The position numbers and the translations under genes are program-made. Source: a virus (taxonomy: Duplodnaviria; Heunggongvirae; Uroviricota; Caudoviricetes). Taken from it: 15,755 nucleotides of DNA. Below the pieces are notes generated by a model that worked only from the letters and a program-made list of their open reading frames with translations, did not search any database and was not told where the DNA came from. The DNA lies in IMG/VR virus record IMGVR_UViG_2667527582_000008, positions 1 through 15,755 of that record; one strand, written 5' to 3'. Numbering within the stretch: position 1 is the first letter of the stretch; every line of letters begins with the position of its first letter. This document shows positions 1 to 15,755 of this stretch, piece by piece.

Positions 1-1194
1 GTGGCACGGACAACACGCCCCCTGACCAACACCGAAGTTCTGCGCGCAAAAGCAATCGATAAGGATCTAACGCTGCATGATGGCGATGGACTTTTCCTGC
101 TAGTGAAAACCAGCGGCAAGAAACTATGGCGCTTTCGCTATCTACGTCCGGCAACAAAGCAGCGGACCATGATGGGGCTCGGAGCCTTCCCCTCCCTTTC
201 ACTTGCTGATGCTCGAAGTCTAAGAGCGGATTACCTTGCTTTACTAGCCAACAAAATCGACCCACAAATTCAAGCCGAAGCCGCAGAGGAAGAGCAGCAA
301 ATCGCTCTGGAAAGTATTTTTTCAACGGTCGCCGCTAACTGGTTCAAGCTAAAAAGCAAAAGCGTTACCCCTGACTACGCAAAAGACATTTGGCGCTCAC
401 TGGAGAAAGACGTATTTCCTGCAATCGGTGAAATCCCTGTTCAGCAAATCAAAGCACGAACATTGGTTGAAGCCCTTGAGCCAATAAAAGCTCGTGGAGC
501 GCTTGAGACGGTACGTCGACTGGTGCAGCGTATTAACGAGATAATGATTTATGCCGTAAACACTGGTCTGATTGATGCAAACCCAGCATCAGGTGTTGGA
601 ATGGCCTTTGAAAAGCCAAAAAAACAAAATATGCCGACGCTTCGGCCAGAAGAATTACCAAAGCTGATGCGTTCTCTAGTAATGTCAAATCTATCTGTTA
701 CGACTCGCTGTCTCATTGAATGGCAGCTTCTGACCCTTGTGCGTCCTTCTGAAGCATCTGGTACTCGGTGGGCAGAGATCGATCTCGAAGCAAAGCTCTG
801 GACCATTCCAGCCGAACGTATGAAGGCTAAGCGCGAGCACATAGTTCCACTATCTCTTCAGGCATTAGAGATTCTTGATGTTATGAAGCCTATCAGTGCG
901 CATCGTGAACATGTTTTTCCGAGTCGGAATGACCCAAAGCAACCAATGAATAGCCAGACGGCAAATGCTGCTTTAAAACGGATTGGATATGGGGGTAAAT
1001 TAGTTGCACATGGTTTACGCTCTATAGCGAGTACAGCAATGAATGAAGCTGGTTTAAATTCAGATGTGATTGAAGCAGCGCTTGCTCACATTGAGAAGAA
1101 TGAGGTTCGCAGAGCATACAATCGTTCCACTTACCTTGAAAAAAGAAAGGGCCTTATGAATTGGTGGGGCAATTTCATAGTGAATAGCAAGTAA
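1..1194 (+). CDS. int: P4-type tyrosine integrase; start at or just beyond the window edge
   Basis: 397-codon ORF from the window edge (GTG at 1) to TAA at 1192-1194. N-terminal LTNTEVLRAKA...DGDGLFLLV...GKKLWRFRY matches the arm-binding N-terminus of P4-family integrases; C-terminal HGLRSIAS and RAYNRSTY match the tyrosine-recombinase catalytic boxes. Confidence 0.9.
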   Translation: MARTTRPLTNTEVLRAKAIDKDLTLHDGDGLFLLVKTSGKKLWRFRYLRPATKQRTMMGLGAFPSLSLADARSLRADYLALLANKIDPQIQAEAAEEEQQIALESIFSTVAANWFKLKSKSVTPDYAKDIWRSLEKDVFPAIGEIPVQQIKARTLVEALEPIKARGALETVRRLVQRINEIMIYAVNTGLIDANPASGVGMAFEKPKKQNMPTLRPEELPKLMRSLVMSNLSVTTRCLIEWQLLTLVRPSEASGTRWAEIDLEAKLWTIPAERMKAKREHIVPLSLQALEILDVMKPISAHREHVFPSRNDPKQPMNSQTANAALKRIGYGGKLVAHGLRSIASTAMNEAGLNSDVIEAALAHIEKNEVRRAYNRSTYLEKRKGLMNWWGNFIVNSK

Positions 1195-1204
1195 GGATAT
1201 AAAA

Positions 1205-2320
1205 ATGAGCACGAGAGAATTCCCATGCAAAGCATCAAATATTTATGATAAAAATATTAACTTTCTATTTGGCTCAGGAGCTTCAGCATCGTATATACCA
1301 ACGCTGTGGCTTGCTGAAAACACCACTTATGAGACATTATTAACGCATAAAGATTGTATCGATGTTAAGGATTTTATCTTATGTTCTTATTTCAATAAAA
1401 TCATTAGAAAAACATTTTGCATTGAGCCAAGTGTAGAAAACAAAAAATACACCTCAACAATAAATAGCTATACAGATTTTCTAGATGAACTTGTTACTTT
1501 ATTAGAAAAAAAAGGCTCCAATCAAATAAGACGAGCCAATATTTTCACAACTAACTATGATCTTTTTTTTGAAACAGCAGCAGACAATGCATTAGCTAAG
1601 AAAACATTCCATTTCAATGATGGTGCTATAGGTTTTAAAAACAGAAGATTAAACATTAGTAATTTTCATATTACTACTTGGCATCAAGGAACTCATGATA
1701 TGTACAAACATGAGTTACCAACTATCAATTTAATTAAAATGCATGGTTCGGTCTCATGGAAAAGAGATGAGAATGAAACAATAAGCATCAACTACCCAAG
1801 TGTTTCACCTGAATTAATAAATTTAGAGACAGATAAAACCATAGATGATTTAGTAATTACCCTAAATACAACTAACGATGATCTAGCTGATTACTTGGAT
1901 TTAAATGCTAATGACCAAAATTCTCTTGAAGAATTCAAATCATACTATAACTCACTCGCGATAGTTAATCCGACCAAAGAAAAGTTTTCAGAAACAGTAT
2001 TTCAGCAACACTACTATCAGAGCTTAAGATTATTAAGCTATGAATTAGAGAAACCACAAACTGTATTAATTTGTTTTGGGTTTTCATTTCAAGACGAGCA
2101 CATTCTTGAAATAATAAAAAGATCTTTAAGTAATCCAACACTAAAAGTATTTGTTTTTTGCTACAACAATCAAAGCAAGCAAGATATAAATAATACAGTA
2201 AATGACCCCAGAATAACCTTCATTTATCCTAAAGAAGTTGATCATAAAATTTCTTTTGATACTTTTATTGATAGAATTTTCAAATCAGAAACAGGAGATT
2301 GGGTAACATGGACGAACTGA
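1205..2320 (+). CDS. SIR2-family (sirtuin-like NADase) protein, first gene of a SIR2-HerA type anti-phage pair
   Basis: ATG at 1205 with AAGGA 7 nt upstream, 10 nt after int stop. Motifs read from translation: FLFGSGASASYIPT (Gly-rich NAD-binding loop), IFTTNYD (defense-type SIR2 motif), KMHGS (candidate catalytic His). No CxxC...CxxC zinc ribbon. Gene is AT-rich. Confidence 0.8.
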   Translation: MSTREFPCKASNIYDKNINFLFGSGASASYIPTLWLAENTTYETLLTHKDCIDVKDFILCSYFNKIIRKTFCIEPSVENKKYTSTINSYTDFLDELVTLLEKKGSNQIRRANIFTTNYDLFFETAADNALAKKTFHFNDGAIGFKNRRLNISNFHITTWHQGTHDMYKHELPTINLIKMHGSVSWKRDENETISINYPSVSPELINLETDKTIDDLVITLNTTNDDLADYLDLNANDQNSLEEFKSYYNSLAIVNPTKEKFSETVFQQHYYQSLRLLSYELEKPQTVLICFGFSFQDEHILEIIKRSLSNPTLKVFVFCYNNQSKQDINNTVNDPRITFIYPKEVDHKISFDTFIDRIFKSETGDWVTWTN

Positions 2321-4077
2321 ATATAGGTAAAGTGACCCAAGTAAAAGGAACCACTGTCAAAGCAAAAATAAACCATGACTTGTTCCAATCAACATACTTC
2401 CACAATGGAAAAATATTGCGTGGTATATCAATAAATGAATTTGTATTAGTTCGTAAAGGTTATCAGGACATTGTAGGTAAGATCATAGGTGAGGAAATTG
2501 TTGAGAACTTTAACATTCGTACTGATGACATTGAGCAGAAAAAATATGAAAGATTCGTTGAACTAAATATTCTCGGGTATTTTTTTGAGGGTAAATTCTA
2601 CTCTGGAATAAAATATCTCCCAATGATAAATGATAGACTTTATTTAATTTCGGATGATAAAATATCTGAAATTTATAGTTTTAGCAAAAATACAAAAACT
2701 CCGCTCATTAACATTGGCAAATCCATGCTAGAGGAATTACCAATAAACATTCCCATAAACGGTGTTTTTAATTCTCATATAGGTATTTTTGGAAATACAG
2801 GAAGTGGAAAGTCAAATACTCTAGCAAAAATATATCAATCACTTTTCAATAGAATTGAAAACAAACAACAATTGATCGATAAGTCAAATTTCGTATTGAT
2901 TGATTTCAATGGTGAATATGGGACATTAGAGAATTCCTTTCCAGAACTATGTCACTCCACAAAACTTAGCACAAAAAAAGATGGTGATAAGATATATTTC
3001 GGTGAAAAAGAATTTTGGGATGATGAACTGTTGTCAGTTTTATTCTCTGCAACCGAGAAAACACAAAAACCATTTCTTACACATTTAATAAAGAGCAAGT
3101 TAAAATATGATGACGATCTTAACACATATTTAAAAAGAACAATTGAAATAATGTTTGGAACAAATCCTCACAAAGAGACCGTTAATTTATTAAAAAGTCT
3201 ACTGCCTTATTTCGATGAGAGCGATCAACAAAAGATACGAGATGAACTATCTCTCTTTACTTGGCATTCAAACCAAGAAAAATATACACATCCTTCGAGT
3301 TGGCTTGACACTACTGCTGAAGTTTTAAAACACACTCAAGCAACATACAATAGCCAATTCCATGTTACTAGTGTATTTGATGAAATTGCTATACGTGCAA
3401 CACTGCAATTAATAAATTCTGTATCCAGAAACTATGTTCAATATGATCACATATATCCTTTGATAAACAAAATAATAGCAATGAGCTCATCTCTAGCAAA
3501 GGTTATAGAAATAAACCGCGCTCAACAAAGCTATAAACCAATATCCATAATCTCTCTCAAAGAATGCAATCAAACCATAAAAAAAACGATTCCGATGATG
3601 ATTGCGAAATGTTCCTTCATAGATCACAAATCTTCGGACAACAAAAAAGAAAGCTTTCATTTAATAATAGATGAAGCTCACAACATTCTTTCCGAAAGCT
3701 CTGTGAGGGAGGCTGAGACTTGGAAAGATTATCGACTTGAATTATTTGAGGAGATAATAAAGGAAGGTAGGAAGTTTGGTTATTTTGTAACTATTTCAAG
3801 CCAGCGACCATTTGATATATCGCCAACAATCGTATCACAACTTCATAATTATTTCATACATCGCTTGGTAAATGAAAACGACCTTTACCTTCTTAAAAAC
3901 ACCTTAAGTACATTAGATGCAGCATCCAGAACACTTATACCTACCCTTCCTCCAGGCGCATGCATAATTTCGGGAACAGCATTTCATACTCCGCTTCTTG
4001 TGCAGATCGATAGACTTTCTGAAGAAAGTGCACCGCAAAGTGACACGCTCGATCTTGAGAGTCTGTGGCGTCTTTAA
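2308..4077 (+). CDS. HerA-like P-loop ATPase, partner of the upstream SIR2 gene
   Basis: Walker A GIFGNTGSGKSNT at nt 2791-2814; Walker B / DEAH-like HLIIDEAHN at nt 3661-3684. ATG at 2308 with AGGAG 10 nt upstream is preferred over the track's TTG at 2299. Overlaps the SIR2 stop by 13 nt, implying translational coupling. About 589 aa, AT-rich. Confidence 0.8.
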   Translation: MDELNIGKVTQVKGTTVKAKINHDLFQSTYFHNGKILRGISINEFVLVRKGYQDIVGKIIGEEIVENFNIRTDDIEQKKYERFVELNILGYFFEGKFYSGIKYLPMINDRLYLISDDKISEIYSFSKNTKTPLINIGKSMLEELPINIPINGVFNSHIGIFGNTGSGKSNTLAKIYQSLFNRIENKQQLIDKSNFVLIDFNGEYGTLENSFPELCHSTKLSTKKDGDKIYFGEKEFWDDELLSVLFSATEKTQKPFLTHLIKSKLKYDDDLNTYLKRTIEIMFGTNPHKETVNLLKSLLPYFDESDQQKIRDELSLFTWHSNQEKYTHPSSWLDTTAEVLKHTQATYNSQFHVTSVFDEIAIRATLQLINSVSRNYVQYDHIYPLINKIIAMSSSLAKVIEINRAQQSYKPISIISLKECNQTIKKTIPMMIAKCSFIDHKSSDNKKESFHLIIDEAHNILSESSVREAETWKDYRLELFEEIIKEGRKFGYFVTISSQRPFDISPTIVSQLHNYFIHRLVNENDLYLLKNTLSTLDAASRTLIPTLPPGACIISGTAFHTPLLVQIDRLSEESAPQSDTLDLESLWRL

Positions 4078-4432
4078 TTCAATTGCCGCCTAATCCTCAT
4101 CTTCATCATGAAGACGCATTTGATGGAGTTGCAAAGATGGAAATAGGCCACGCCCTAAAGGCGTTGGCCTAAATTGGCGTAACATTTAAACACATGCAAA
4201 ACCATGCATCCTATAGAGGTTTATGCCTTGATAAACAGCCTCTCAAAGATTCAACCTCACCTTTTTATTACTCCATATACGGCTGTTCTCAATTTTAGAC
4301 TTTAACCTCATACGCTGGGTTGTTTAACCCTAGCTCACTGACTTCCTTTTGCTTCCTTACAGCGTACAAAATAGCAAGCCCCCCCTTATTTACCCTACCG
4401 CATTATCGATGAGTTGTATGCTCGGCATCCTT

Positions 4433-5467
4433 TTACCTCGAAGCGCGCGCTCGTAGCCCCGCCACGCCTGCCCGCTTTAGGGAGTGGTTTTCATGCAGTT
4501 GCATGATAGGCTCTAAACCGCGCCTTATCTGGTCTGGGAAGTAAAAATGCAAGTGCATAAAGTCATGCGATTTCATGCAGTATAGACATGCACTCAGGCT
4601 ATAGACATCAAAAAACCCGGCACTGGCCGGGCTTAAGTGAGCTTTTCTGTTCAGGTCAAAACAGCTTACTTTTTTTCTGTCGTCATGCGATCCTGATACT
4701 GGAGCTGAACCGGTCAGGCTCATCACGTCGTCCCGGAATCTTAACGGTAATATTTCATTCGTCCACTTCAGCATTAGATTCAGGATAAATTCACGATACA
4801 GCGTATCTGCATCATTTGTGCCTTCAATAATGCCCGGTATATGTGCTGAGCTATATCGCTCAAATTGTCTGTACTTCATCCTGAGCAGGCCGCTCAATTC
4901 GGCACCGTGGAAAATAAAAAAGTCTCGTAAAAGCTCATCGATACGCTCCTCAGTGATGCCATGATGGCAGTTTATATAAACGTTTGCCTTACGCGTGGTC
5001 GCTTGAGCCAGTACCGGCAGCTGATCTTCTTTTTCAGTAATCAGCCCGGCGAGTTCTGTGGCTGTTTCCTGTTGTTCCAGATACTCAGCCCGGAGAGCTT
5101 TCATCTCCGGCGTTACGATGCCGCCGCTCTGGTTAAGCAGTTCCCTGAACTGCGCCCGATTGTCTTTGCTGGCCTGCTCAGTTTCGGTCTGATGCTGGCG
5201 CAGAGCCCTGAGGTTCTCAATGGCTGCTTCTTCGGCCTGTCTGGCCTCCACCCAGGCCTGCATTTTTTGGTAAAGGTCGATAATTCGGGACTGCCAGTCG
5301 GAGGAAAGGCTTTTTGTCAGTTTTTCCGTCTCGCGGGCGATTTCATTTGCAGGCAAATTCATGAGCCAATCCGCATCCTGAAGCGGTTTTTTTGCCCTCG
5401 CGAGGAGTGTTACTACGTGTCCGGTTGCGGCCTGAATCTGGTTTTCCGTCAATTGTTGTTCTGTCAT
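4433..5467 (-). CDS. Satellite late-operon protein, Sid-like paralog (hypothetical); 3' end uncertain
   Basis: ATG at 5467-5465 with GGAGG 9 nt upstream, 19 nt after the delta-like stop. N-terminal half is coiled-coil-like and shares motifs with ORF 6312-7064 (FRE..Q..MTP.MK.LRAE; S..IG.V..TNDP...L..FI). The frame runs without a stop through the terminator hairpin and the cos-like GC spot, so the last ~70 codons may not be real. Confidence 0.55.
   Translation of the reverse strand: MTEQQLTENQIQAATGHVVTLLARAKKPLQDADWLMNLPANEIARETEKLTKSLSSDWQSRIIDLYQKMQAWVEARQAEEAAIENLRALRQHQTETEQASKDNRAQFRELLNQSGGIVTPEMKALRAEYLEQQETATELAGLITEKEDQLPVLAQATTRKANVYINCHHGITEERIDELLRDFFIFHGAELSGLLRMKYRQFERYSSAHIPGIIEGTNDADTLYREFILNLMLKWTNEILPLRFRDDVMSLTGSAPVSGSHDDRKKVSCFDLNRKAHLSPASAGFFDVYSLSACLYCMKSHDFMHLHFYFPDQIRRGLEPIMQLHENHSLKRAGVAGLRARASR
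4610..4631 (-). terminator. Intrinsic terminator-like hairpin on the minus strand, inside the 3' part of ORF 4433-5467
   Basis: Minus strand reads CCCGGC-CAGT-GCCGGG followed by TTTTTT: a perfect 6-bp GC-rich stem, 4-nt loop and U-tract. Confidence 0.5.
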
Positions 5468-5486
5468 ATTTTTGTTCCTCCCCAAT

Positions 5487-5759
5487 TTATTGTGCATGAC
5501 GGTCTTTAAGGGTACAGGCTGAACCGTAGCGGCCCAGTGTATGCGGCTGACGTACAAGAGAATCGCTCTGTGATTCAGGTTCAGGCGCCACTGGTTTATG
5601 GGGCTTCATAATTATCGTGTCCACACTTTCCAGGGCAGTAAATGTGCAGGAGCATTCAAGATTCTGGCACTGATACCATGAGCGTTTAACCGATGGAGCT
5701 TCATAGGCGCTGGTTCTGGCGTGTGCGACCGTGCCACATTCAGGACATTTCAGGGCCAT
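5487..5759 (-). CDS. Ogr/Delta-family zinc-finger late transcriptional activator
   Basis: 90-aa protein MALKCPECGTVAHARTSAYEAPSVKRSWYQCQNLECSCTF with the CxxC...CxNxxC zinc finger and HARTS/YxQCxN signature of P2 Ogr / P4 Delta. AGGAGG 8 nt upstream of ATG at 5759; starts 2 nt after the psu-like stop. Confidence 0.85.
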   Translation of the reverse strand: MALKCPECGTVAHARTSAYEAPSVKRSWYQCQNLECSCTFTALESVDTIIMKPHKPVAPEPESQSDSLVRQPHTLGRYGSACTLKDRHAQ

Positions 5760-5760
5760 A

Positions 5761-6315
5761 TCAGTCCCCTCCTTTTTCATTAAGCCTGTTGAGGCGGGCC
5801 AGAAAAACTTTATGTTTTGCCGGGGTGAAAATGGCTGAAGCATCAGCTCGCATTGATGCATCCACCGTTAATCCGGTTTCGTCGATAACGCTCTTATATG
5901 CTGCTGAAATTACAGGAGTACGGATTTCGGTTTGTCGGACTACAGCGGTGCGTAATATTTTCATTGCCGCCTCAAGCCCGTATGGTGCGCAAAGAAAAGG
6001 AGCCAGAGCGTCAGTGAGTGCATTACCATGCTCGCTCATGAAGTTTTCAGTTGCGCCTGTAACACAGCTTTCCAGCACAATCTGGTGAGCATAAAGACCG
6101 TCCCTGGCGGCGCAGTTAATCTGCCATTCGAGGAGAGCAATACGCTCACGAAGATTCTCAAGCTGGCTGGCATATGCTGCCGGTTTTTCTTCAGTATCCA
6201 GCAGAGCCGCCAGACGAAGTTGGCTGGTACTTTGCACATTACGTAGTGTCAGCCAGCTTTTTATCGCCGCGCGATAGTTGTTGAGAGCTTCCTTAGTAAT
6301 GTTTCCAGGATTCAT
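5761..6315 (-). CDS. psu: Psu-like protein (polarity suppression / capsid decoration family)
   Basis: 184-aa protein; segments HGNALTDALAPFL and FTPAKHKVF resemble P4 Psu as recalled from memory (not searched). Start ATG overlaps the upstream gene stop (ATGA). Confidence 0.7.
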   Translation of the reverse strand: MNPGNITKEALNNYRAAIKSWLTLRNVQSTSQLRLAALLDTEEKPAAYASQLENLRERIALLEWQINCAARDGLYAHQIVLESCVTGATENFMSEHGNALTDALAPFLCAPYGLEAAMKILRTAVVRQTEIRTPVISAAYKSVIDETGLTVDASMRADASAIFTPAKHKVFLARLNRLNEKGGD

Positions 6316-7064
6316 CCTTTCTCTTCCCCTTTAACCATGTCACGCTGTTTAAGCATCCGGGAACGCGCTGCAGGGCTGGGTGATTGCCTGGCATCCTGTA
6401 GGGCTTTATCGTCCGCATAAATGCTAATCCCCGGCAGGGCAATAACATCCGTTGAAGATACGTTACAGGACAGTGCCGGAGCGGTGAGTTGCTCGCTGAT
6501 AAATTGCTTCAGCACACTTTCGGGGTCGTTTACGGTATGAACTACGCCGATAACGGAAGAAGCGCTTCGCCCCAGAGTCATTTTCAGCAATCCAAGGATC
6601 TGAATAAGTTTCTGGCCGTGTTCCTTCATAAACTCATTCCAGAGCCACTCTGCATGAGTTTCAATCAGCCGGTTATGTTCGCTGATGTAGCGGTTTGCAG
6701 CATCCGCAGTTTTCCAGGGCAGGAATTCTTTTTCTGCGGCGTGAGCTTCAAGCAAATCTTCGAACTCATCAAGTGTTTCGCGTCCCAGGGCGATTTCTGC
6801 ACGCAGTTTTTTCATTCGTGGCGTCATATTCCCCTGATTCTCACGAAACAGGTTTCGCCATTCATCATTAAGCGCCTGCGTCTCCGTTTTTGTATCTTCC
6901 TGACGTTTACGGATAGTTTCAGTCATTGCAGCGGCTTCAGTTTGTATTCGCCGTTCTTCCTGCCAGACAGCTTTTGCTGCTTTAACTTTTTCTACCGCTT
7001 CGCGAATTTTCGGTGGGAGGGAGGGTGTAATGTTTGCATCAGGGATCTGGTTAACAGTTGTCAT
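6312..7064 (-). CDS. Satellite late-operon protein, Sid-like (candidate capsid-size determination scaffold); paralog of ORF 4433-5467
   Basis: ATG at 7064-7062 with GGAG 5 nt upstream is preferred over the track's TTG at 7097. Coiled-coil-like N-terminus; stop overlaps the psu-like start. Assignment as Sid is by position, size (~250 aa) and composition, not by a search. Confidence 0.55.
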   Translation of the reverse strand: MTTVNQIPDANITPSLPPKIREAVEKVKAAKAVWQEERRIQTEAAAMTETIRKRQEDTKTETQALNDEWRNLFRENQGNMTPRMKKLRAEIALGRETLDEFEDLLEAHAAEKEFLPWKTADAANRYISEHNRLIETHAEWLWNEFMKEHGQKLIQILGLLKMTLGRSASSVIGVVHTVNDPESVLKQFISEQLTAPALSCNVSSTDVIALPGISIYADDKALQDARQSPSPAARSRMLKQRDMVKGEEKG

Positions 7065-7165
7065 GGCTGCTCCGGTAGTGTTTTGTTGTTGTGTCAATTG
7101 TGCCGGTGCCCATACAAGCGCACTACCGATGAGGATTGTGCCAGTGACTGAACAATGACCTTGTT

Positions 7166-7177
7166 CTGGCTAGCCAG
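7166..7177. promoter_or_regulatory. Perfect 12-bp palindrome CTGGCTAGCCAG upstream of the late operon; candidate operator or activator site
   Basis: Sequence reads the same on both strands; lies about 100 bp upstream of the Sid-like start (7064) in ORF-free DNA. Confidence 0.3.
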
Positions 7178-7219
7178 AGAAAGGTGTCATGTCTGAGCTT
7201 CACCCTTCCTTTAATACAT

Positions 7220-7435
7220 ACTATTCACTACTGTTCACTTTCATAAAAGAATAGTAAATACATGTGGTTAAGGAGTGCAGGGTTTAAATAAAAGTGGTCA
7301 TCTACTGTTCATGACTGTTCACAGAGATAAATTTAACTTATATTTGTTTTTCATATAAATCGCGATATTTATTTCAGTTTATTACTGGATTTTTATTCCT
7401 CACCACTATTCACACGTATTCAACACTATTCAATA
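7220..7435. repeat. Cluster of iteron-like ACT(A/G)TTCA(C) repeats; candidate replication origin / primase-binding repeats or regulator sites
   Basis: Copies at about 7220-7228, 7229-7238, 7303-7311, 7314-7323, 7404-7413, 7416-7424 and 7425-7434, plus an inverted copy near 7148-7153, all in ORF-free AT-rich DNA. They resemble the TGTTCACC-type repeats of the P4 ori/crr regions as recalled. Confidence 0.4.
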
Positions 7436-7967
7436 TACAGTATAAAACGTGTCTTATGTCTGTTTAAAAATTCAACACTTAACCTCCCTACACTCGGTTG
7501 CATTTCAGGAAAATATCCATAAAAATGAATCTGTCTGATGCTCATTAAACACATCCGGATAAATTCGGAAGGATGCGGGTAATTTAATTTTTTTAGCCAT
7601 TAACTTAATTAATACATATGATGAACTGTTTTTTATGAACGTTTTTTGGCCCTTTTATTATTCCGGCGCTGTTTTCATCCTTATGATGTAACGCCCGGAA
7701 TGATATGGTCTGGTACAGACTTGAGCGGCGATCCTGCCTGGTGTAATAGACTTTTTTATTCTTGAAGCTCCTTATTATATTCCATGAAGGAATGATTTGT
7801 TTTTGTCCGTTTTATCCGGTTTTTAGCTGTTTTATTTTTTGAGAAGTCAATATTTCTCTCTAATTAAATAAAGCATGCGCGAGCCGCTTATATGAACATA
7901 ATAAGGAACTACCTGAATCCGGATGGAATTGTCCGGACTACTGAAAACATATTAGAGAGGTAGCGAA

Positions 7968-8092
7968 ATGCATACTATTTCCGTTTCCACCCCAGCACCA
8001 GCTGCTCCGGTGCTCCCGATTCCGACTGAGCAGGAGCGCTTCATACGATTACCTGAAGTGATGCACCTTTGCGGGCTATCCCGTTCAACCAT
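7968..8092 (+). CDS. AlpA-family phage transcriptional regulator, 5' portion only (cut by gap)
   Basis: ATG at 7968 preceded by GAGAGG; translation MHTISVSTPAPAAPVLPIPTEQERFIRLPEVMHLCGLSRSTI carries the RLPEV...GLSRSTI helix-turn-helix signature of AlpA-type regulators; runs into the N gap at 8093. Confidence 0.55.
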
Positions 8093-8102
8093 NNNNNNNN
8101 NN
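8093..8102. other. Assembly gap (10 N)
   Basis: Run of n; interrupts the AlpA-like CDS. Confidence 0.95.
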
Positions 8103-8106
8103 TAAA

Positions 8107-8140
8107 GGCTATCTTTTTCTATCGTTTGACTGTCTGGAGT
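8107..8140. repeat. 34-bp repeat, copy 1 (33/34 identical to 9449-9482)
   Basis: GGCTATCTTTTTCTATCGTTTGACTGTCTGGAGT; here it lies downstream of immunity gene 1 at a contig edge. Confidence 0.8.
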
Positions 8141-8192
8141 CCTCCACCTACTCTGCCATCAGCGCACACGATGTTTGATTATCCTTACATAC

Positions 8193-8576
8193 TTATTTTC
8201 CGTGGCCAAAATTCAGAATTCTCCCATCATTTTTGCCTATTTCTATAATAAAAACCCCACCAGCAATTTGGTCTGAGTGAATGGTACCTTCAACAACCCA
8301 ACTTGTTGTTAACTCAGTGATTTCGTATGGTTTTTCTTCTTCTGCGGCATCCTGTCCATAACGATTCTTAACATATATCTCAGCTAATTCCAATGCTATA
8401 GCTTTATTTTTAACCAAATTTCTAACGGTATATTTACCTTCACTTTCATACTTGCGCATTATTTTAATATTATTATTACACTGCGCCCATGTGTTGTATG
8501 TAAAAACAAACAAAGATACAATGACACAGTTCCTAAACAATATTTTTTTACATATTACCATGAACTCTGCAGACAT
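8193..8576 (-). CDS. Putative Rhs immunity protein for the toxin at 8548-9176
   Basis: 127-aa ORF directly after and overlapping the toxin gene; ATG at 8576 with AAAGGA 7 nt upstream; AT-rich. N-terminus is hydrophobic ([16 protein letters not shown]), which suggests a signal peptide or membrane anchor. Confidence 0.5.
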
Positions 8577-9176
8577 TAGGTAATCCTTTTCTGTTTGTTA
8601 TTTCCTTCCCGTGGTTATCTATTGCTTTAAAATTACCACTGGGCGTACCTAAATAAAATGACTTGATATTGTTATCTTTACTTTTAACTATTTTCTCATC
8701 TTTACCTGAAAATATTTCGTCCCAATATTCTCCATGACTATCTGCACCATGAGTATGATAAGCTGATACTTTCTCAGTACCATTAGGGCAAGGGCTATTG
8801 AATGGATATGATCCTTTTCTTTCTCCTCGGTTAGGTGCTGTTGAGAAATATCTGCCACTATTATCCTTACATATTAAACCAGCGAACTCTTTATCTTCGC
8901 AAATAGATTGGCTATTTATTTTATTTAAGGCGTCATATGCGGTGCTATCTATAGAATCAAATTTATCTGGACCTATCATAGCGGATAGTGTGCCGCAAAG
9001 ACCATTAGTACATGCCCCCGATTTTGCATCCTCCCACATAGATAAACCCAGGGGGTCGATGTCTGATATCGGATTCAATTGATATCCATACAGGTTCCAT
9101 CCCCCCTTCAGTCCAATCGGATCCTGAGTGATATATCGCCCCTGCAGCGGGTCATAATAGCGGTGGCGGTTGTAAT
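8548..9176 (-). CDS. Rhs C-terminal fragment: end of the conserved core plus a variable toxin domain of unrecognised family; 5' cut by gap
   Basis: Translation [44 protein letters not shown] is the conserved Rhs core end (DPxGL boundary); it is followed by ~165 aa of AT-rich, Cys-containing variable sequence ending at TAA 8548. Confidence 0.8.
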
Positions 9177-9186
9177 NNNNNNNNNN
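9177..9186. other. Assembly gap (10 N)
   Basis: Run of n inside the conserved Rhs core. Confidence 0.95.
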
Positions 9187-9187
9187 A

Positions 9188-9430
9188 TATTTGCCCGAGT
9201 ATAAATGCTCCGATATCTCTACGGATATAATTTTTGTCAGTGCAGAATTCAATTGCCAATCTAACAGCGTCTTGCCCCCCTCTTAACTGTAATACTCTGG
9301 CAGATGAAATCCTTTTCAAGGAATTGCGATCATCAAGTAAGCGAAATAATTCATCATCATTTAGTTTCTTACATTTATTATATAAACCATACTCTTTACT
9401 TGCCTTTCTTTTCTGGTATGTATTTGACAT
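9188..9430 (-). CDS. Putative Rhs immunity protein for the toxin at 9451-9935; 3' end cut by gap
   Basis: ATG at 9430-9428 with GGAGG 8 nt upstream, 21 nt after the toxin stop. Translation MSNTYQKRKASKEYGLYNKCKKLNDDELFRLLDDRNSLKRISSARVLQLRGGQDAVRLAIEF... looks like a helical (HEAT-like) repeat. Confidence 0.5.
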
Positions 9431-9448
9431 TGCAGGAACCTCCACAAG

Positions 9449-9482
9449 GGCTATCTTTTTTTATCGTTTGACTGTCTGGAGT
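9449..9482. repeat. 34-bp repeat, copy 2 (33/34 identical to 8107-8140)
   Basis: GGCTATCTTTTTTTATCGTTTGACTGTCTGGAGT; here it forms the last codons and stop of Rhs toxin 2. Confidence 0.8.
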
Positions 9483-9935
9483 GACGACAATTCCAGGCTT
9501 TCTGTGTGCTTTTTGCATCTTTAGCACTAATATCACCACAATCAATTAGTTCCTGAAGTACGTCACATCTGTCGGGTTTTTTCCCATCACTCCAGAATCT
9601 GTCATTTATTATGTCATTGACACGATCAGTTATCCCTGTGTCTGCAACATTTCCACGAGAAGCTATCATTGTTATATCTAATGCTAGTCCCGGATTATTC
9701 AATATTAGAGAGTCAAATATTCTTTGTGATGCTGTATCGTTCCACCATTTTGTCAATGCTTTTGCAGCATTATCATCTGCTTGCTGCTGTGCAGGGCTTT
9801 TGGGCCATGGAATTGGCAAGGGGAATGGTCTAGGAAAAACTTCTAACCCCAGAGGATCTGTATTCGTAACTGGATTCAACGGATACTGATAAAAATTCCA
9901 TCCCCCCTTCAGCCCAATCGGATCCTGAGTGATAT
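9451..9935 (-). CDS. Rhs C-terminal fragment: end of the conserved core plus a second, different variable toxin domain; 5' cut by gap
   Basis: Upstream codons read [30 protein letters not shown] (Rhs core end with DPxGL), followed by ~130 aa of variable sequence ending ...SRQSNDKKR. Confidence 0.8.
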
Positions 9936-9945
9936 NNNNNNNNNN
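9936..9945. other. Assembly gap (10 N)
   Basis: Run of n between the Rhs core and the truncated cbeA-like gene. Confidence 0.95.
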
Positions 9946-10594
<649 letters not shown>

Positions 10595-10659
10595 ACATTG
10601 CGTACAACCTTCCCGATTTACATTTCTGAACTTCCTCCCTTGTTTACCTATTGCGTAAT

Positions 10660-10695
10660 GCGCCTGCTACTACCCGGCAGGCGCGTTATCTTTTT
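10660..10695 (+). terminator. Rho-independent terminator after the cbtA-like gene
   Basis: GCGCCTGC-(9-nt loop)-GCAGGCGC perfect 8-bp stem followed by GTTATCTTTTT. Confidence 0.6.
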
Positions 10696-11342
10696 ACGGA
10701 CAAACAATCATGCAACCAGAAGTTGAAGTATTAACCGATCATAATGAGCTAATTTGTTCGAGCTTTATTGAACACATTGCCAACACATTAAATTTAGGAG
10801 TGGTGTACAACTAAACCTGCAGCCAAGGATGTATAGTGAGCGAAGCCCTATCAGGCCTTTTTGGTCAGTAGATAAGATTGATCTTCGTTGATAGAATTTA
10901 CTTACACCAGCTGTTACATTAAGATAATTTTTTGGTGGGAGAATGATAAGATCTTACGTAACAATTTGATTTTAATGGTGCGATAATAGGAACAAATAAA
11001 CCAACTTAACTCGTTGTTTTGCAAAAATTTATTCTTATCGGCAAATAATCCTATACACATGGCTATACACATTGGCGGGAGCGTTCAAAACTCGTCCACC
11101 TCATCGCACAACAAAATACTTTTTCTTAAGAAAAGCGTACATACTATTCACCATCATATTTTTATATGAAATATCAATATGATAGAAGTTAACCGTTAAG
11201 TGAAGAGTGAACAGCAAACCCTACATTTGATCTTAGACCATAATAAAACCCAGCATTCGCCGGGTTGGTGGTCCACTCGCATTAAATTTATGATAGGTCA
11301 AAACTATCTTTTCCTAAATTTTAACCTATTCCAAAAGAACAG

Positions 11343-11361
11343 GGCTGTGAAGTTAGCCCCA
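11343..11361 (-). terminator. Possible terminator hairpin after the standalone SIR2-like gene
   Basis: Minus strand GGGGCT-AACTTCAC-AGCCC followed by a T-rich tract (TGTTCTTTTGG), about 20 nt after the stop at 11379; stem is short. Confidence 0.35.
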
Positions 11362-11378
11362 TCCTTAACCTATTAAAT

Positions 11379-12476
11379 TTATTCAAGATATAAGGATTGC
11401 TCAATGAACTGACTGGCACCACATAAATGAACTTTAACCTCACGCTCACCAAAAAACGCCTGCCAATATTTTTTTATATCCTTTTCTTTTTCTTTATCTC
11501 TTTCATATGTTACGACTTCAATTTTAACACTTCGTTTAATCATTCGAGATAAAAGTTGTCTCATTTCAAAATCGGCATTCGGCAACGAATAACCTATGAA
11601 GATTATTTTGTCAGCTTCAGATAATTCAATACCAGCGTTCTGCCAAATTATTTTGTATTGAGGATTTGATAGATCCTTTAGAAAGGTAGGCATAATAAGA
11701 TTTGATATCAGTCTATTCTCTTTATTTACTGCGTCATGATTTTTATCACAATGCCTACATGTTGCCCCTCTCGCAACCCCTATTTTTTTATTAAACCCGA
11801 CATAAAGGCGCATGCATCGCGAACATTGTAGCCAGTTAAGTGAACCATGAATCTTCAGCAGTTTCACATTAAAACCACCTGCTCCTAACATTTCTAGACC
11901 CGGCTTTACCGTTTCGTCCCTTTCTTCTAAGGAGCTTATATAACAGCAATAATCAACAACTGCACGTCCGTGGTAGTTCCTTTGGATATAATCATACAAT
12001 GAATTATCTAGTAGAATATCCCAGTTGGTACTAATAACGCTTACAGAATCATGCTGTCTATAATTACCACCCAGCCTCTCGCTACATTTCCTCACTAAAT
12101 ACTCAGCAAAGTGGTCAATATATTCCTTACTATTCCCTTTTCTTTCCAAGATCCTCCTAATGGCCAAACCAATGATATTAAAAACAGCATCCCTTGTCTT
12201 TGTCATTTGCTCAATAGACAGACCTCTAAACTGGATATTATCCGCCAAGCACCGGTCTAAAGGAGTGAACATATCTTCAATCTGAACATCTTTAAATTGC
12301 TCACGTTTATAATATAATTGTTCAGTAAGTAAGTTTTCAAAAAGCTGAAAATCTGAACCATTAAAATAGTTTGAATTCTCTTGGTGTATTTTAAATATCT
12401 CACCCATTATTTCCGCCTGCATAGGCGCGCCAGCTTCTTTTGAAAATCCAGCGCCAAGCACAAATACAGTTTTCAT
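11379..12476 (-). CDS. Standalone SIR2-like (sirtuin-fold) protein with Cys4 zinc ribbon; candidate single-gene NAD-depleting defense effector
   Basis: ATG at 12476 with AAGAGG 6 nt upstream (track's TTG at 12482 not preferred). Translation has VFVLGAGFS at residues 5-13, VISTNWD, and KIHGSLNW followed by CSRC-(18 aa)-CRHC, the sirtuin-type zinc ribbon placement. No N- or C-terminal extra domain (365 aa). AT-rich, with terminator-like hairpins on both sides and a candidate promoter. Confidence 0.75.
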   Translation of the reverse strand: MKTVFVLGAGFSKEAGAPMQAEIMGEIFKIHQENSNYFNGSDFQLFENLLTEQLYYKREQFKDVQIEDMFTPLDRCLADNIQFRGLSIEQMTKTRDAVFNIIGLAIRRILERKGNSKEYIDHFAEYLVRKCSERLGGNYRQHDSVSVISTNWDILLDNSLYDYIQRNYHGRAVVDYCCYISSLEERDETVKPGLEMLGAGGFNVKLLKIHGSLNWLQCSRCMRLYVGFNKKIGVARGATCRHCDKNHDAVNKENRLISNLIMPTFLKDLSNPQYKIIWQNAGIELSEADKIIFIGYSLPNADFEMRQLLSRMIKRSVKIEVVTYERDKEKEKDIKKYWQAFFGEREVKVHLCGASQFIEQSLYLE

Positions 12477-12490
12477 CCACAACCTCTTAA

Positions 12491-12530
12491 ATTATATTCT
12501 GCGGTAAGATATTTGAAGATTAGCTTATTC
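12491..12530 (-). promoter_or_regulatory. Candidate sigma70-type promoter for the SIR2-like gene
   Basis: Minus strand shows TATAAT (plus 12491-12496) about 15 nt upstream of the ATG, with a weak TTCAAA -35-like hexamer about 15-17 nt further upstream; lies just after the primase terminator. Confidence 0.35.
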
Positions 12531-12541
12531 ATATGTCAAGA

Positions 12542-12566
12542 AAAAACCGGCTTCCACCGGTTTAAA
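12542..12566 (-). terminator. Terminator-like hairpin after the primase C-terminal fragment
   Basis: Minus strand AACCGG-TGGAAG-CCGGTT (6-bp stem) followed by TTTTT, immediately after the stop at 12570. Confidence 0.4.
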
Positions 12567-12569
12567 AAC

Positions 12570-12886
12570 CTATTTTGTGATTTCGAGACTGCACTTCGGT
12601 AGCCAGTCAGCATTGCATTCTTCTCTAAGTGCCAGATTGGTCTGCATTCCCTGATTGGTCCGCCGCTTCTCGTACTGCAGCCCATACTCTTTCAGCATTA
12701 ACGGCAGCCCCTTGCCAAACATGGTCAGACTGAGCGTATTTTTATAGCCGTTGGCTTCCATGTAGACCAGATAGGCATGGTAAAGGTATGTACGTGGCTG
12801 GCGCGGGACAATATTGGCGTTCCCCATAAACATGCCGTTGGTGTCGGGTAATGCCTCAAGATAGCCACAAAAATCAAATGCTGGAT
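12570..12886 (-). CDS. C-terminal fragment of a P4-family (alpha-like / D5-like) primase-helicase; 5' cut by gap
   Basis: Translation ...PRQPRTYLYHAYLVYMEANGYKNTLSLTMFGKGLPLMLKEYGLQYEKRRTNQG... shows the aromatic-rich ...Y..Y.....NG......S...F...L...G pattern typical of the C-terminal domain of P4-type primases; stop TAG at 12570. Confidence 0.55.
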
Positions 12887-12896
12887 NNNNNNNNNN
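12887..12896. other. Assembly gap (10 N)
   Basis: Run of n; the track ORF 12570-13190 that spans it fuses two unrelated proteins and is an artefact. Confidence 0.95.
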
Positions 12897-13190
12897 ACCA
12901 CCCTGTTGCAGCAGGATCAGCCACGGACTCTGCCCGCCTGCAAGCTGCGTGGCCACGTCGGTGAACTGCGCAGGCAGCATACGCATGGCGGCTTTATACT
13001 GCCCGACGGAAATCCCCGCTTTCTGTGCAGCCAGCGCCTGCCGGCTCATCGACTGTTCAACGACTGCCGCTGTTTTTTTCGCATCACTTTCCGTACCGGA
13101 AAAATGACGCCTGACTCTGGCCATCTGCTCGTCAAATCTGGCCGCATCCAGACTCAAATCAACGACCAGATCGCCTACCGGTTCAGCCAT
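12897..13190 (-). CDS. H: Tail tape measure protein, N-terminal 98 codons only (cut by gap)
   Basis: MAEPVGDLVVDLSLDAARFDEQMARVRRHFSGTESDAKKTAAVVEQS...QFTDVATQLAGGQSPWLILLQQGG matches the lambda gpH N-terminus as recalled; ATG at 13190. Confidence 0.9.
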
Positions 13191-13620
13191 ACCGGACTCC
13201 TCCTGCGATCCCTTCTGATACTGTCATCAGCATTACGTCATCCTCCGTCATGTCCGCCACATCCGGGGAAGCGGGGATAACTTCATTCCCGTCCGGGCCA
13301 AAACGAACGCCTCCGGCAAGCCCTGCCGCTTTCTGCATCAGCACATCATCTTCAGGCTCTTCGTCAGCCTCACGCCGGTTCAGCAGACTGAAATCCAGCG
13401 GATGCATCTCCGGATCGCTGAAAAACAGGCTGAGCACGGTGTACGTCAGCCCGGAAAAGTGCATATCCAGCAGAACATCATGAAAATAATGGGTACTGTA
13501 AAAGCGGTGCCAGTCGGCATACTCCGTGGATGACATCCCGGCAAGCATGGCACGCCAGTCGGGTCGCCCCATCTCACGCGCCAGTTTCAGGGCAAAACTC
13601 AGCTCACCGTCGAACACTTT
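13183..13620 (-). CDS. T: Tail assembly chaperone T segment, expressed as a G-T fusion by -1 programmed frameshift
   Basis: ORF in the -1 frame relative to G, opening at the slippery site and ending overlapping the H start; translation ends ...MFDGELSFALKLAREMG..., lambda T-like. Confidence 0.8.
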   Translation of the reverse strand, partial: KVFDGELSFALKLAREMGRPDWRAMLAGMSSTEYADWHRFYSTHYFHDVLLDMHFSGLTYTVLSLFFSDPEMHPLDFSLLNRREADEEPEDDVLMQKAAGLAGGVRFGPDGNEVIPASPDVADMTEDDVMLMTVSEGIAGGVRYG

Positions 13621-14021
13621 CCCGCAGAAACAGGCTCTGCAGGCCCGGCGTCCTCTGCCTGTTCAGGAGCATCATTCACCACAAACTCATACATACCGGA
13701 CAGCCGGTACACCACGTTTTCAGCATGAGAAATTGCCTCTGTGGGCCAGGTGGTAAGCACTTCCTGCTCAATCTGTTTAACGGCTTCATTCATGGACGGC
13801 ATCTGCGTCTTCTGCGGATGGTTATGCCACAGGGACATCGCCACCAGAAACGCGCCGGTTCTGATGGCGTCTTCCACAGTAAACTTCCGGTTGCTGTCTG
13901 ACTCCGCCTGTTCTGCCTGCCGTTTCATCAGGGCGAGATGCTCAATACGCTGCAGGGCTGACAGTTCAGAAAGCGTGACGGTCACGCCGTTATGTTCAAA
14001 TGATTCGGTTTTCAGGAACAT
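13599..14021 (-). CDS. G: Tail assembly chaperone G
   Basis: 140-aa protein MFLKTESFEHNGVTVTLSELSALQRIEHLALMKRQAEQAES..., near-identical to lambda gpG as recalled. Confidence 0.9.
   Translation of the reverse strand: MFLKTESFEHNGVTVTLSELSALQRIEHLALMKRQAEQAESDSNRKFTVEDAIRTGAFLVAMSLWHNHPQKTQMPSMNEAVKQIEQEVLTTWPTEAISHAENVVYRLSGMYEFVVNDAPEQAEDAGPAEPVSAGKCSTVS
13617..13623 (-). promoter_or_regulatory. Programmed -1 ribosomal frameshift slippery heptamer GGGAAAG (G to G-T)
   Basis: Minus strand reads G GGA AAG about 16 nt upstream of the G stop codon; the T frame opens exactly here. Confidence 0.75.
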
Positions 14022-14036
14022 CGCTGACTCTCCGGA

Positions 14037-14777
14037 TTAACTGTCGGTGACAGTGATTTCTGCAACCGCAGCAAGTTCACCATTACCGGATACAACCGGA
14101 ATGTTGACCTTACCTGCAGCAACGCCTTTCACGGTGATGGTTATACCACTGACCGACACGGTGGCTTTTGTTTTATCCGCTGACACCGCACGGAAGCTCT
14201 TGTCAGTTGCGCCCTCCGGCTGGAATGCCACGGTCAGCGTGGTGCTCTGCCCTTTCACCACCGAGGAGCTGGCAGGCGTCACGGTCATACCGGTTGCCGC
14301 CGTCACCGTACTGCGATCTTCTGCCATTGACGGACGGCCCACATTGGTGACCTTCACCGTACGGGTGATCACTTCCTTCGCCGTCACCGCCTTACCGATA
14401 CTGCTGACCCAGCCACGGAACACATCGACCGTGCCGTTCGGGAAGCGGATTTTATAGGCACGGGTATCACCTTCATTAAACCACGCCAGCAGCGCCTGCT
14501 GCCCCTGCTCTCCGGGCATCCACGCCAGCGTGAAGCTGGTATCTCCGGCGGATTTCTGCCCCTGCCCGGTCGCGGTCCAGTCCGCATCTTCATCATCGAG
14601 ATAACTGTCGTCATAGGACTCAGCGGTCAGTTCGCCGGGCGTCAGGTCTTTAACTTTTGCCAGACGCGACCAGTCAACGTCTGAAAGCGGGTTCGCATAA
14701 GGGTCACCGCTCCCCTTATAAACCCACAGGGTGGTCCCGGCACCTTTCACCGGCATTGTAGGATTTGGTACAGGCAT
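14037..14777 (-). CDS. V: Major tail tube protein V
   Basis: 246-aa protein from ATG at 14777: [45 protein letters not shown]..., lambda gpV-like including the C-terminal Ig-like region. Confidence 0.9.
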
Positions 14778-14784
14778 AGCGTCC

Positions 14785-15180
14785 TCACATTTCATAGGTA
14801 ATGACATAAGTCAGATCGGCTGAACTCCACAGGCCCGCATCATCGTCGCGCCGGTAGTCATAGCCACTGGCCACCATACTGGTGATCAAATCTGACAGTG
14901 CCGGGATATCGCTCATCACCGGATAAATCCGGGACTCCATCCACGCATCCAGCTCTGAATCCGGCACCTGAGCAGGCAGGAAAACTTCGATATGCAGCTC
15001 CGCCTGCCAGGTATCGCTGTCCAGCTCTTCGCCCGTGTATTCAGCGCCGGTGAGATAAACGGCAATTGCCGGAAAATCTTCCTCATCAAAAACAGCGGGG
15101 CGACCATCAAAAAGCGTCGCCCCGGTGTCATGCTTCTCCAGTGCATCCAGTACGGCTGCACGGAGTTCAGTATGTTTCAT
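14785..15180 (-). CDS. U: Tail terminator protein U
   Basis: 131-aa protein [52 protein letters not shown]..., lambda gpU-like. Confidence 0.9.
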
Positions 15181-15755
15181 CGCTTTATTACCATCCTCAG
15201 TTGATGCTGCAGCGCATAGCCCAGCTCTTTCGGAAGACGCTCACGCCGTATCCGCTCAATATTCTGTTTAAACGCCGTGGTCAGCGGCACCGCCATCGGG
15301 ATTTTCACCACATCAATGGGGTAACGGTTTTTCCCGGCCACACGCTGCATGACATGCCAGCGGCCATTTTTCAGTTGCTGAATAAACGCGCCGGGAATAC
15401 GACGGTTTCCCACCACAAGCACGCTGCCGCCACCTTTCAGGGCTGAACGCTGCCCCTTTTTACGACGCCTGCGTCGGGACAGGACAATCCGCGCGTTACC
15501 CAGCTTTATTACGGGCAAATCCCCCCGGTTAACCCTGATTCTGGCCTGCGGATTTTTGACCGTGGCCCTTTTCAGCCTGGCCCTTTCCTTTACCAGTTTC
15601 CGGCGTACCTTTGTCTCACGGGCAACCTGTGACGCCGACTGCGATATCGCGGATGAAGCAACGCGGTTAATGGCCATTGCGGCGGCACCGGGCACCGCCG
15701 TTCTGCTGATACGGCTGAGGTTTTCAACGGCCTGCTCAAGACCTTTTATGACCAT
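15177..15755 (-). CDS. Z: Tail completion protein Z
   Basis: 192-aa protein M(V/A)IKGLEQAVENLSRISRTAVPGAAAMAINRVASSA..., lambda gpZ-like; start codon lies at the window edge and the stop overlaps the U start. Confidence 0.9.
   Translation of the reverse strand: MVIKGLEQAVENLSRISRTAVPGAAAMAINRVASSAISQSASQVARETKVRRKLVKERARLKRATVKNPQARIRVNRGDLPVIKLGNARIVLSRRRRRKKGQRSALKGGGSVLVVGNRRIPGAFIQQLKNGRWHVMQRVAGKNRYPIDVVKIPMAVPLTTAFKQNIERIRRERLPKELGYALQHQLRMVIKR

Follow-up and report, generated by a model that had tools for sequence, protein, structure and literature searches.

What are the two Rhs toxin-immunity cassettes that lie side by side on the minus strand of a 15,755-nucleotide stretch of viral DNA? 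The stretch (hereafter the window) comprises positions 1 to 15,755 of the IMG/VR virus record IMGVR_UViG_2667527582_000008. The locus raises three questions in particular: whether the toxin domains belong to new families, whether the tips are the ends of full-length rhs genes or displaced modules, and where in the target cell the toxins act. The initial annotation of the window correctly described two minus-strand cassettes, each with an Rhs tip and an immunity gene directly downstream of it. They are the rhsB-yhhH and rhsA-yibA cassettes of E. coli K-12. The feature is thus genuine, yet it was known before, being made up of fragments of textbook K-12 genes.

The window includes four runs of ten N, three of which are listed in Table 1; the fourth is located at positions 12887-12896. 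These spacers join five contigs, whose matches are unrelated E. coli loci. Positions 1-8092 are a P4-like satellite carrying a SIR2-HerA defense pair, as determined from matches in complete genomes and from PADLOC. The two cassettes occupy one contig each, and both are read on the minus strand. We call these contigs piece A (8103-9176) and piece B (9187-9935). Positions 9946-12886 carry genes which we take to be cbeA/cbtA-like; they were read by eye from the translations, with no database match. Lambda-like tail genes are found at positions 12897-15755.

In the annotation of K-12, rhsB is located between nikR and yhhJ, and rhsA is located between yibF and yibH. Because the contigs of the window are joined by 10-N spacers and flanked by unrelated loci, the gene order in the window is a concatenation and not a genomic context. 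The practical lesson is that neighbors in the window carry no information about the genomic surroundings of a gene.

Table 1. Positions of the cassette features and of the adjoining contig spacers in the window
Feature	Positions	Strand	Remarks
Contig spacer, 10 N	8093..8102	none	
yrhC leader, 37 nt, end of piece A	8103..8139	-	yrhC is a pseudogene, a yibA paralog downstream of yhhH
yhhH, 127 aa, Imm-NTF2-2 immunity protein	8193..8576	-	Pfam PF15631, 2.5e-26, 92 bits
RhsB C-terminal tip, 164 aa and stop	8548..9042	-	Tox-JAB-2 / DUF4329
rhsB core, last 44 codons including PxxxxDPxGL	9043..9176	-	cut by gap; 100% identical to K-12 rhsB
Contig spacer, 10 N	9177..9186	none	
yibA-type HEAT-repeat immunity gene, first 81 of 280 codons	9187..9430	-	cut by gap
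RhsA C-terminal tip, 130 aa and stop	9451..9843	-	Ntox34 in the last ~75 aa; Pfam PF15606, 7.3e-44
rhsA core, last 30 codons including PxxxxDPxGL	9844..9935	-	RHS_core positions 1232-1261; cut by gap
Contig spacer, 10 N	9936..9945	none	

Families of the tips and of their immunity partners

Piece A is identical to E. coli K-12 MG1655 at all 1074 of its 1074 positions, which cover the end of rhsB, the whole of yhhH, and 37 nt of the yrhC leader. Its reading frame (8548-9176, minus strand) enters from the gap with 44 core residues, continues into the 164-aa tip (tip 1), and ends with a stop codon at 8548-8550. The core fragment corresponds to positions 1218-1261 of the 1261 positions of NCBIfam RHS_core and also matches TIGR03696. 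The translated tip is identical to the C-terminus of K-12 RhsB. Compared with K-12 rhsB-yhhH (b3482-b3483), the end of the core, the DUF4329 tip, the overlap of the two genes, and the start of the yrhC leader are all identical here. The present part shows no differences from K-12, while ~3.6 kb of upstream rhsB sequence is lost to the contig break.

Piece B agrees with K-12 rhsA-yibA at 742 of 749 positions. Its frame (9451-9935, minus strand) enters with 30 core residues, followed by the 130-aa tip (tip 2) and a stop codon at 9451-9453; the translated tip is identical to the C-terminus of K-12 RhsA. The initial annotation had described open reading frames that pass from an Rhs core into AT-rich C-terminal domains, and this was borne out for both tips (164 aa and 130 aa, GC content 0.30-0.40). 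The PxxxxDPxGL junction of core and tip is intact in both cassettes. Both cores are indeed cut by assembly gaps, i.e., by the 10-N runs at 9177-9186 and 9936-9945.

A small open reading frame with its own ribosome-binding site had been claimed to follow each tip. This is correct for yhhH, which overlaps the end of the toxin gene by 29 nt, has AAGGA 9 nt upstream of its ATG, and encodes a 127-aa protein identical to K-12 YhhH. The second gene does have a ribosome-binding site (GGAGG, 8 nt upstream of the ATG at 9430, which itself lies 20 nt past the stop codon of tip 2), but it is not small: the supposed short frame represents the beginning (81 codons) of a gene for 280 aa, which the gap truncates. 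These 81 codons correspond to positions 1-81 of the 285 positions of NCBIfam PRK09687, and their product matches YibA of known structure (PDB 1OYZ) with 78 of 81 identical residues (E-value 6e-47). The 97-aa frame listed by the program at this site reads through the Ns.

Both toxin domains had been described as belonging to no recognized family. Profile search assigns tip 1 to Pfam PF14220 DUF4329 (Tox-JAB-2) with 136 bits against a Pfam gathering threshold of 28.6 bits, profile positions 2-114 of 116 being covered. Tip 2 matches PF15606 Ntox34 with 148.2 bits against a gathering threshold of 25 bits, over profile positions 1-80 of 80. Moreover, a paper of 2012 had already described the two families together with their immunity partners (Zhang et al., PMC3482391). 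The Pfam scores and the 2012 listing refute the earlier claim. It is true that no solved-structure relative of either tip is detectable by sequence and that neither family has a demonstrated biochemical activity; we nevertheless see practically no chance that these domains represent families still to be recognized. The locus therefore carries little weight as a discovery, both toxin-immunity family pairings having been cataloged already.

According to the 2012 description, Tox-JAB-2 (DUF4329 in Pfam) has the motif E, H[ST]H, S, D, and its immunity protein belongs to Imm-NTF2 family 2 (Zhang et al., PMC3482391). Tip 1 conforms to the JAB/MPN (deaminase-like) fold of Tox-JAB-2 / DUF4329. Its JAMM residues E52, H96-T-H98, S112, and D115 (in tip numbering) are invariant in five homologs. 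We take tip 1 to be an active zinc hydrolase; most likely it is a zinc-dependent hydrolase of the JAMM type. The literature predicts Tox-JAB-2 to be a nuclease or RNase and calls its activity and substrate unknown.

Five cysteines of tip 1 are invariant in the alignment of close homologs (A3). The same E/HTH/S/D residues occur in RhsD-CT, where cysteines stand in similar sequence contexts (compared by eye, the tips being unaligned). K-12 rhsD-ybbC is thus a paralogous system: its Tox-JAB-2 tip has the E/HTH/S/D motif and the cysteine pattern of tip 1, and its partner is of the Imm-NTF2-2 family. Its sequence, however, is diverged, and YbbC is 48% identical to YhhH. The likeness to JAMM/MPN metalloproteases (AfJAMM, Rpn11, BRCC36, Cap3) and RadC is more distant. 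In those proteins about 7 residues separate HxH from SxxD, whereas tip 1 has 13; unlike them, tip 1 also has a helical, cysteine-rich N-terminal extension, and its mode of delivery is that of an Rhs toxin tip. Sequence searches of the PDB with both tips and YhhH gave no significant match. We found no experimental report of RhsB-CT toxicity or of its neutralization by YhhH in the literature.

At least 80% of piece A is present in 2686 of 5426 complete E. coli genomes, where the genes are annotated as rhsB, yhhH, and “DUF4329 domain-containing protein”. In all 15 of the 15 top piece A matches listed, the match is split in two and overlaps an annotated IS1 element. At the one locus looked at (L001, 6774-7471), IS1 interrupts the rhsB tip, each half of which is annotated as a pseudogene. 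In the window, the rhsB tip is uninterrupted.

Ntox34 was described as an all-alpha domain with the motif GNxxD … WxCxH and an Imm-HEAT immunity partner (Zhang et al. 2012, PMC3482391). Tip 2 contains the motifs GNxxD (as GNVAD), PDRC, and TxKAWxCR, and its WNCRH fits WxCxH. In 17 diverse members of the family, no variation is seen at G, N, C39, T, K, C65, and S, while the final H is not conserved. Invariant or nearly so in the same members are G-N-x-x-D, the Cys of PDRC, a Leu, and T-x-K-A-W-x-C-R-x-S-R. An exhaustive search found only 41 Ntox34 relatives among 1.84 billion cluster representatives. The predicted Ntox34 model is all-helical but of low confidence: with one usable homolog in the alignment, its pLDDT is 56, which is too poor for the model to be used.

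Two further suggestions about tip 2 were rejected. The E. coli sequence suggests a CCCH zinc site, but the family as a whole does not conserve C102 and H121, and such a site is therefore unlikely. A marginal match of the 17-member profile to the competence pilin ComGC (PDB 6txt_A, E-value 0.027) covers the DTG…L..L..sG.IS…KA helices (9454-9680) and not the invariant Cys and Trp; because these conserved residues are missing from it, we treat the match as chance. PDB searches by sequence and by profile found no solved-structure relative of Ntox34.

At least 80% of piece B is present in 1742 of the 5426 complete E. coli genomes, with the annotations rhsA, yibA, and “polymorphic toxin type 34 domain-containing protein”. 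In 2011, Aggarwal and Lee reportedly observed a disturbance of the translational machinery by cloned RhsA sequences. As summarized in PMC3150448, Vlazny and Hill (1995) found that RhsA's C-terminal region blocks recovery from stationary phase and that yibA neutralizes this effect.

By analogy with other members of the family, a full-length Rhs protein would form a shell, or cocoon, of YD repeats that encloses the C-terminal tip. An aspartyl autoprotease would then cut at PxxxxDPxGL and free the tip; autoproteolysis at this motif is required for killing (PMC8765631). The released tip is expected to poison a neighboring cell, and in siblings the product of the downstream gene would bind and neutralize it. 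Tip 2 would be a small all-alpha toxin; that it is toxic and that YibA neutralizes it is known from experiments in K-12. New tips enter by recombination in the conserved core, pushing old tips downstream (PMC2935791).

Contig ends and the yibA-type fragment

The ends of both pieces coincide with repeats. K-12 rhsA and rhsB have a last shared stretch of 77 nt; the start of piece A falls within it, and that of piece B 2 nt beyond its end. At the opposite end of piece A, positions 8103-8139 repeat the yibA leader (9445-9481) in the same orientation, apart from 2 mismatches; the piece ends exactly at the last of the three sites that separate the yibA and yrhC leaders. We are highly confident that the region consists of two small contigs of a short-read E. 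coli draft, carrying the rhsB-yhhH and rhsA-yibA ends, which are separate because the assembly broke at repeats.

The Rhs cores lie outside the window, and for the attachment of the tips to full-length genes K-12 and further complete genomes are the sole guide. The tips might instead be displaced orphan rhs-CT/immunity modules that follow some other rhs gene. The rhs loci of E. coli commonly contain orphan tips with a short piece of core (PMC2935791; yibJ and ylbH are K-12 examples), just 44 and 30 codons of core are visible here, and IS1 parts the rhsB tip from its core in several complete genomes. However, the same tips end full-length rhsB and rhsA in K-12 and in most annotated matches, and the contigs stop where the rhs copies turn identical, which is what a repeat break of a full-length gene gives. 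We thus consider displaced modules quite improbable and regard the two pieces as the probable ends of full-length rhsB and rhsA.

The 3' part of piece B needs a separate explanation. Compared with K-12 rhsA-yibA (b3593-b3594), the tip protein, the yibA leader, and the first codons are identical. The rest of the fragment differs from K-12 yibA by seven bases, which cause three amino-acid changes (Q19K, H35R, and S64T), and all of these differences are yrhC-like. Indeed, at all seven of the seven sites that distinguish yibA from yrhC in K-12 (9376, 9327, 9278, 9248, 9241, 9236, and 9187), piece B has the yrhC-type base. The switch to the yrhC type falls within an identical stretch of 68 nt (9377-9444), and piece B ends on the diagnostic site 9187. 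Positions 9187-9482 are identical at 293 of 296 positions to a HEAT pseudogene located downstream of yhhH in another genome. An exact copy of piece B occurs in none of the 5426 complete genomes; the best match among them is 99.3% identical and has yibA-type bases at five of the seven diagnostic sites.

Judging from the sequence, the yibA fragment of piece B is probably a mis-join to, or a collapse with, the rhsB-locus pseudogene yrhC. In the simplest reading, a path in the de Bruijn graph would leave the rhsA tip, cross a node shared by the two paralogs, and exit into the yrhC branch. Draft contigs are often correct, though, and the long identical stretches common to both paralogs would also permit gene conversion of yibA from yrhC, in which case the fragment would be a true allele with no assembly chimera or collapse. 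Three observations make this unlikely in our opinion: all seven yrhC-type differences sit on one side of the identical 68-nt stretch, contig A stops exactly where that stretch starts, and the best complete-genome match is still of the yibA type at five of these sites.

Site of action of the RhsB tip

The hydrophobic N-terminus that the initial annotation noticed in the first immunity protein is confirmed by hydropathy and is conserved in homologs. In YhhH a basic segment (KK..R) is followed by the hydrophobic core CVIVSLFVF and then by TWA|QC, which together form a Sec-type signal. Homologs down to 65% identity retain this N-terminal signal pattern and a nearly invariant N-x-W-A. The positive-inside rule puts the NTF2 domain of YhhH outside the cytoplasm. 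Its paralog YbbC, encoded after the RhsD Tox-JAB-2 tip, begins with MKYSSIFSMLSFFILFAC, which contains a lipobox (LFAC). The two proteins thus differ in the type of signal: YbbC has a lipobox, whereas the signal of YhhH is of the Sec/SPase I type. Imm65, the partner of Tox-JAB-1, is a lipoprotein (Zhang et al. 2012, PMC3482391).

The export signals of YhhH and YbbC, the conserved cysteines of the tips, and the lipoprotein nature of Imm65 suggest a periplasmic action. We tentatively propose that the Tox-JAB-2 tips of RhsB and RhsD work in the periplasm, as zinc (iso)peptidases directed against a target in the envelope, a proposal that we hold to be possible but would not call probable. Under this proposal the target may be the peptidoglycan cross-links or the Lpp-peptidoglycan bond. 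Two points weigh against it. Salmonella Rhs-DUF4329 proteins have been tabulated with CdiI-type partners that have neither a signal peptide nor a transmembrane segment, and the conserved cysteines could bind metal instead. If true, a periplasmic action would differ from what the literature predicts, namely a role as nuclease or RNase. In any case, the exported immunity proteins of JAB-type tips provide a cheap and testable hint on where the toxin acts.

Further searches and neighboring contigs

PADLOC gave no match for the four proteins of the two cassettes. Word-indexed homolog searches returned almost only E. coli and Salmonella, so the alignments are shallow. A scan for promoters and terminators returned fewer sites than were obtained in shuffled controls.

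The AT-rich defense pair of the P4-like satellite (positions 1205-4077, plus strand, GC content about 0.30) comprises a SIR2 gene (PADLOC PDLC04089, 2.7e-66) followed by a HerA gene (PDLC04097, 7.5e-200). In the annotation of complete genomes, the surrounding satellite genes encode an integrase, psu, ogr/delta, and a helix-turn-helix regulator. The entire 8-kb satellite stretch is present in 3 of the 5426 complete genomes. Another AT-rich open reading frame, of 367 aa (positions 11379-12482, minus strand), has weak matches to SIR2, the best of which is PDLC04093 (6.8e-9); it shares its contig with the presumed cbeA/cbtA-like genes.
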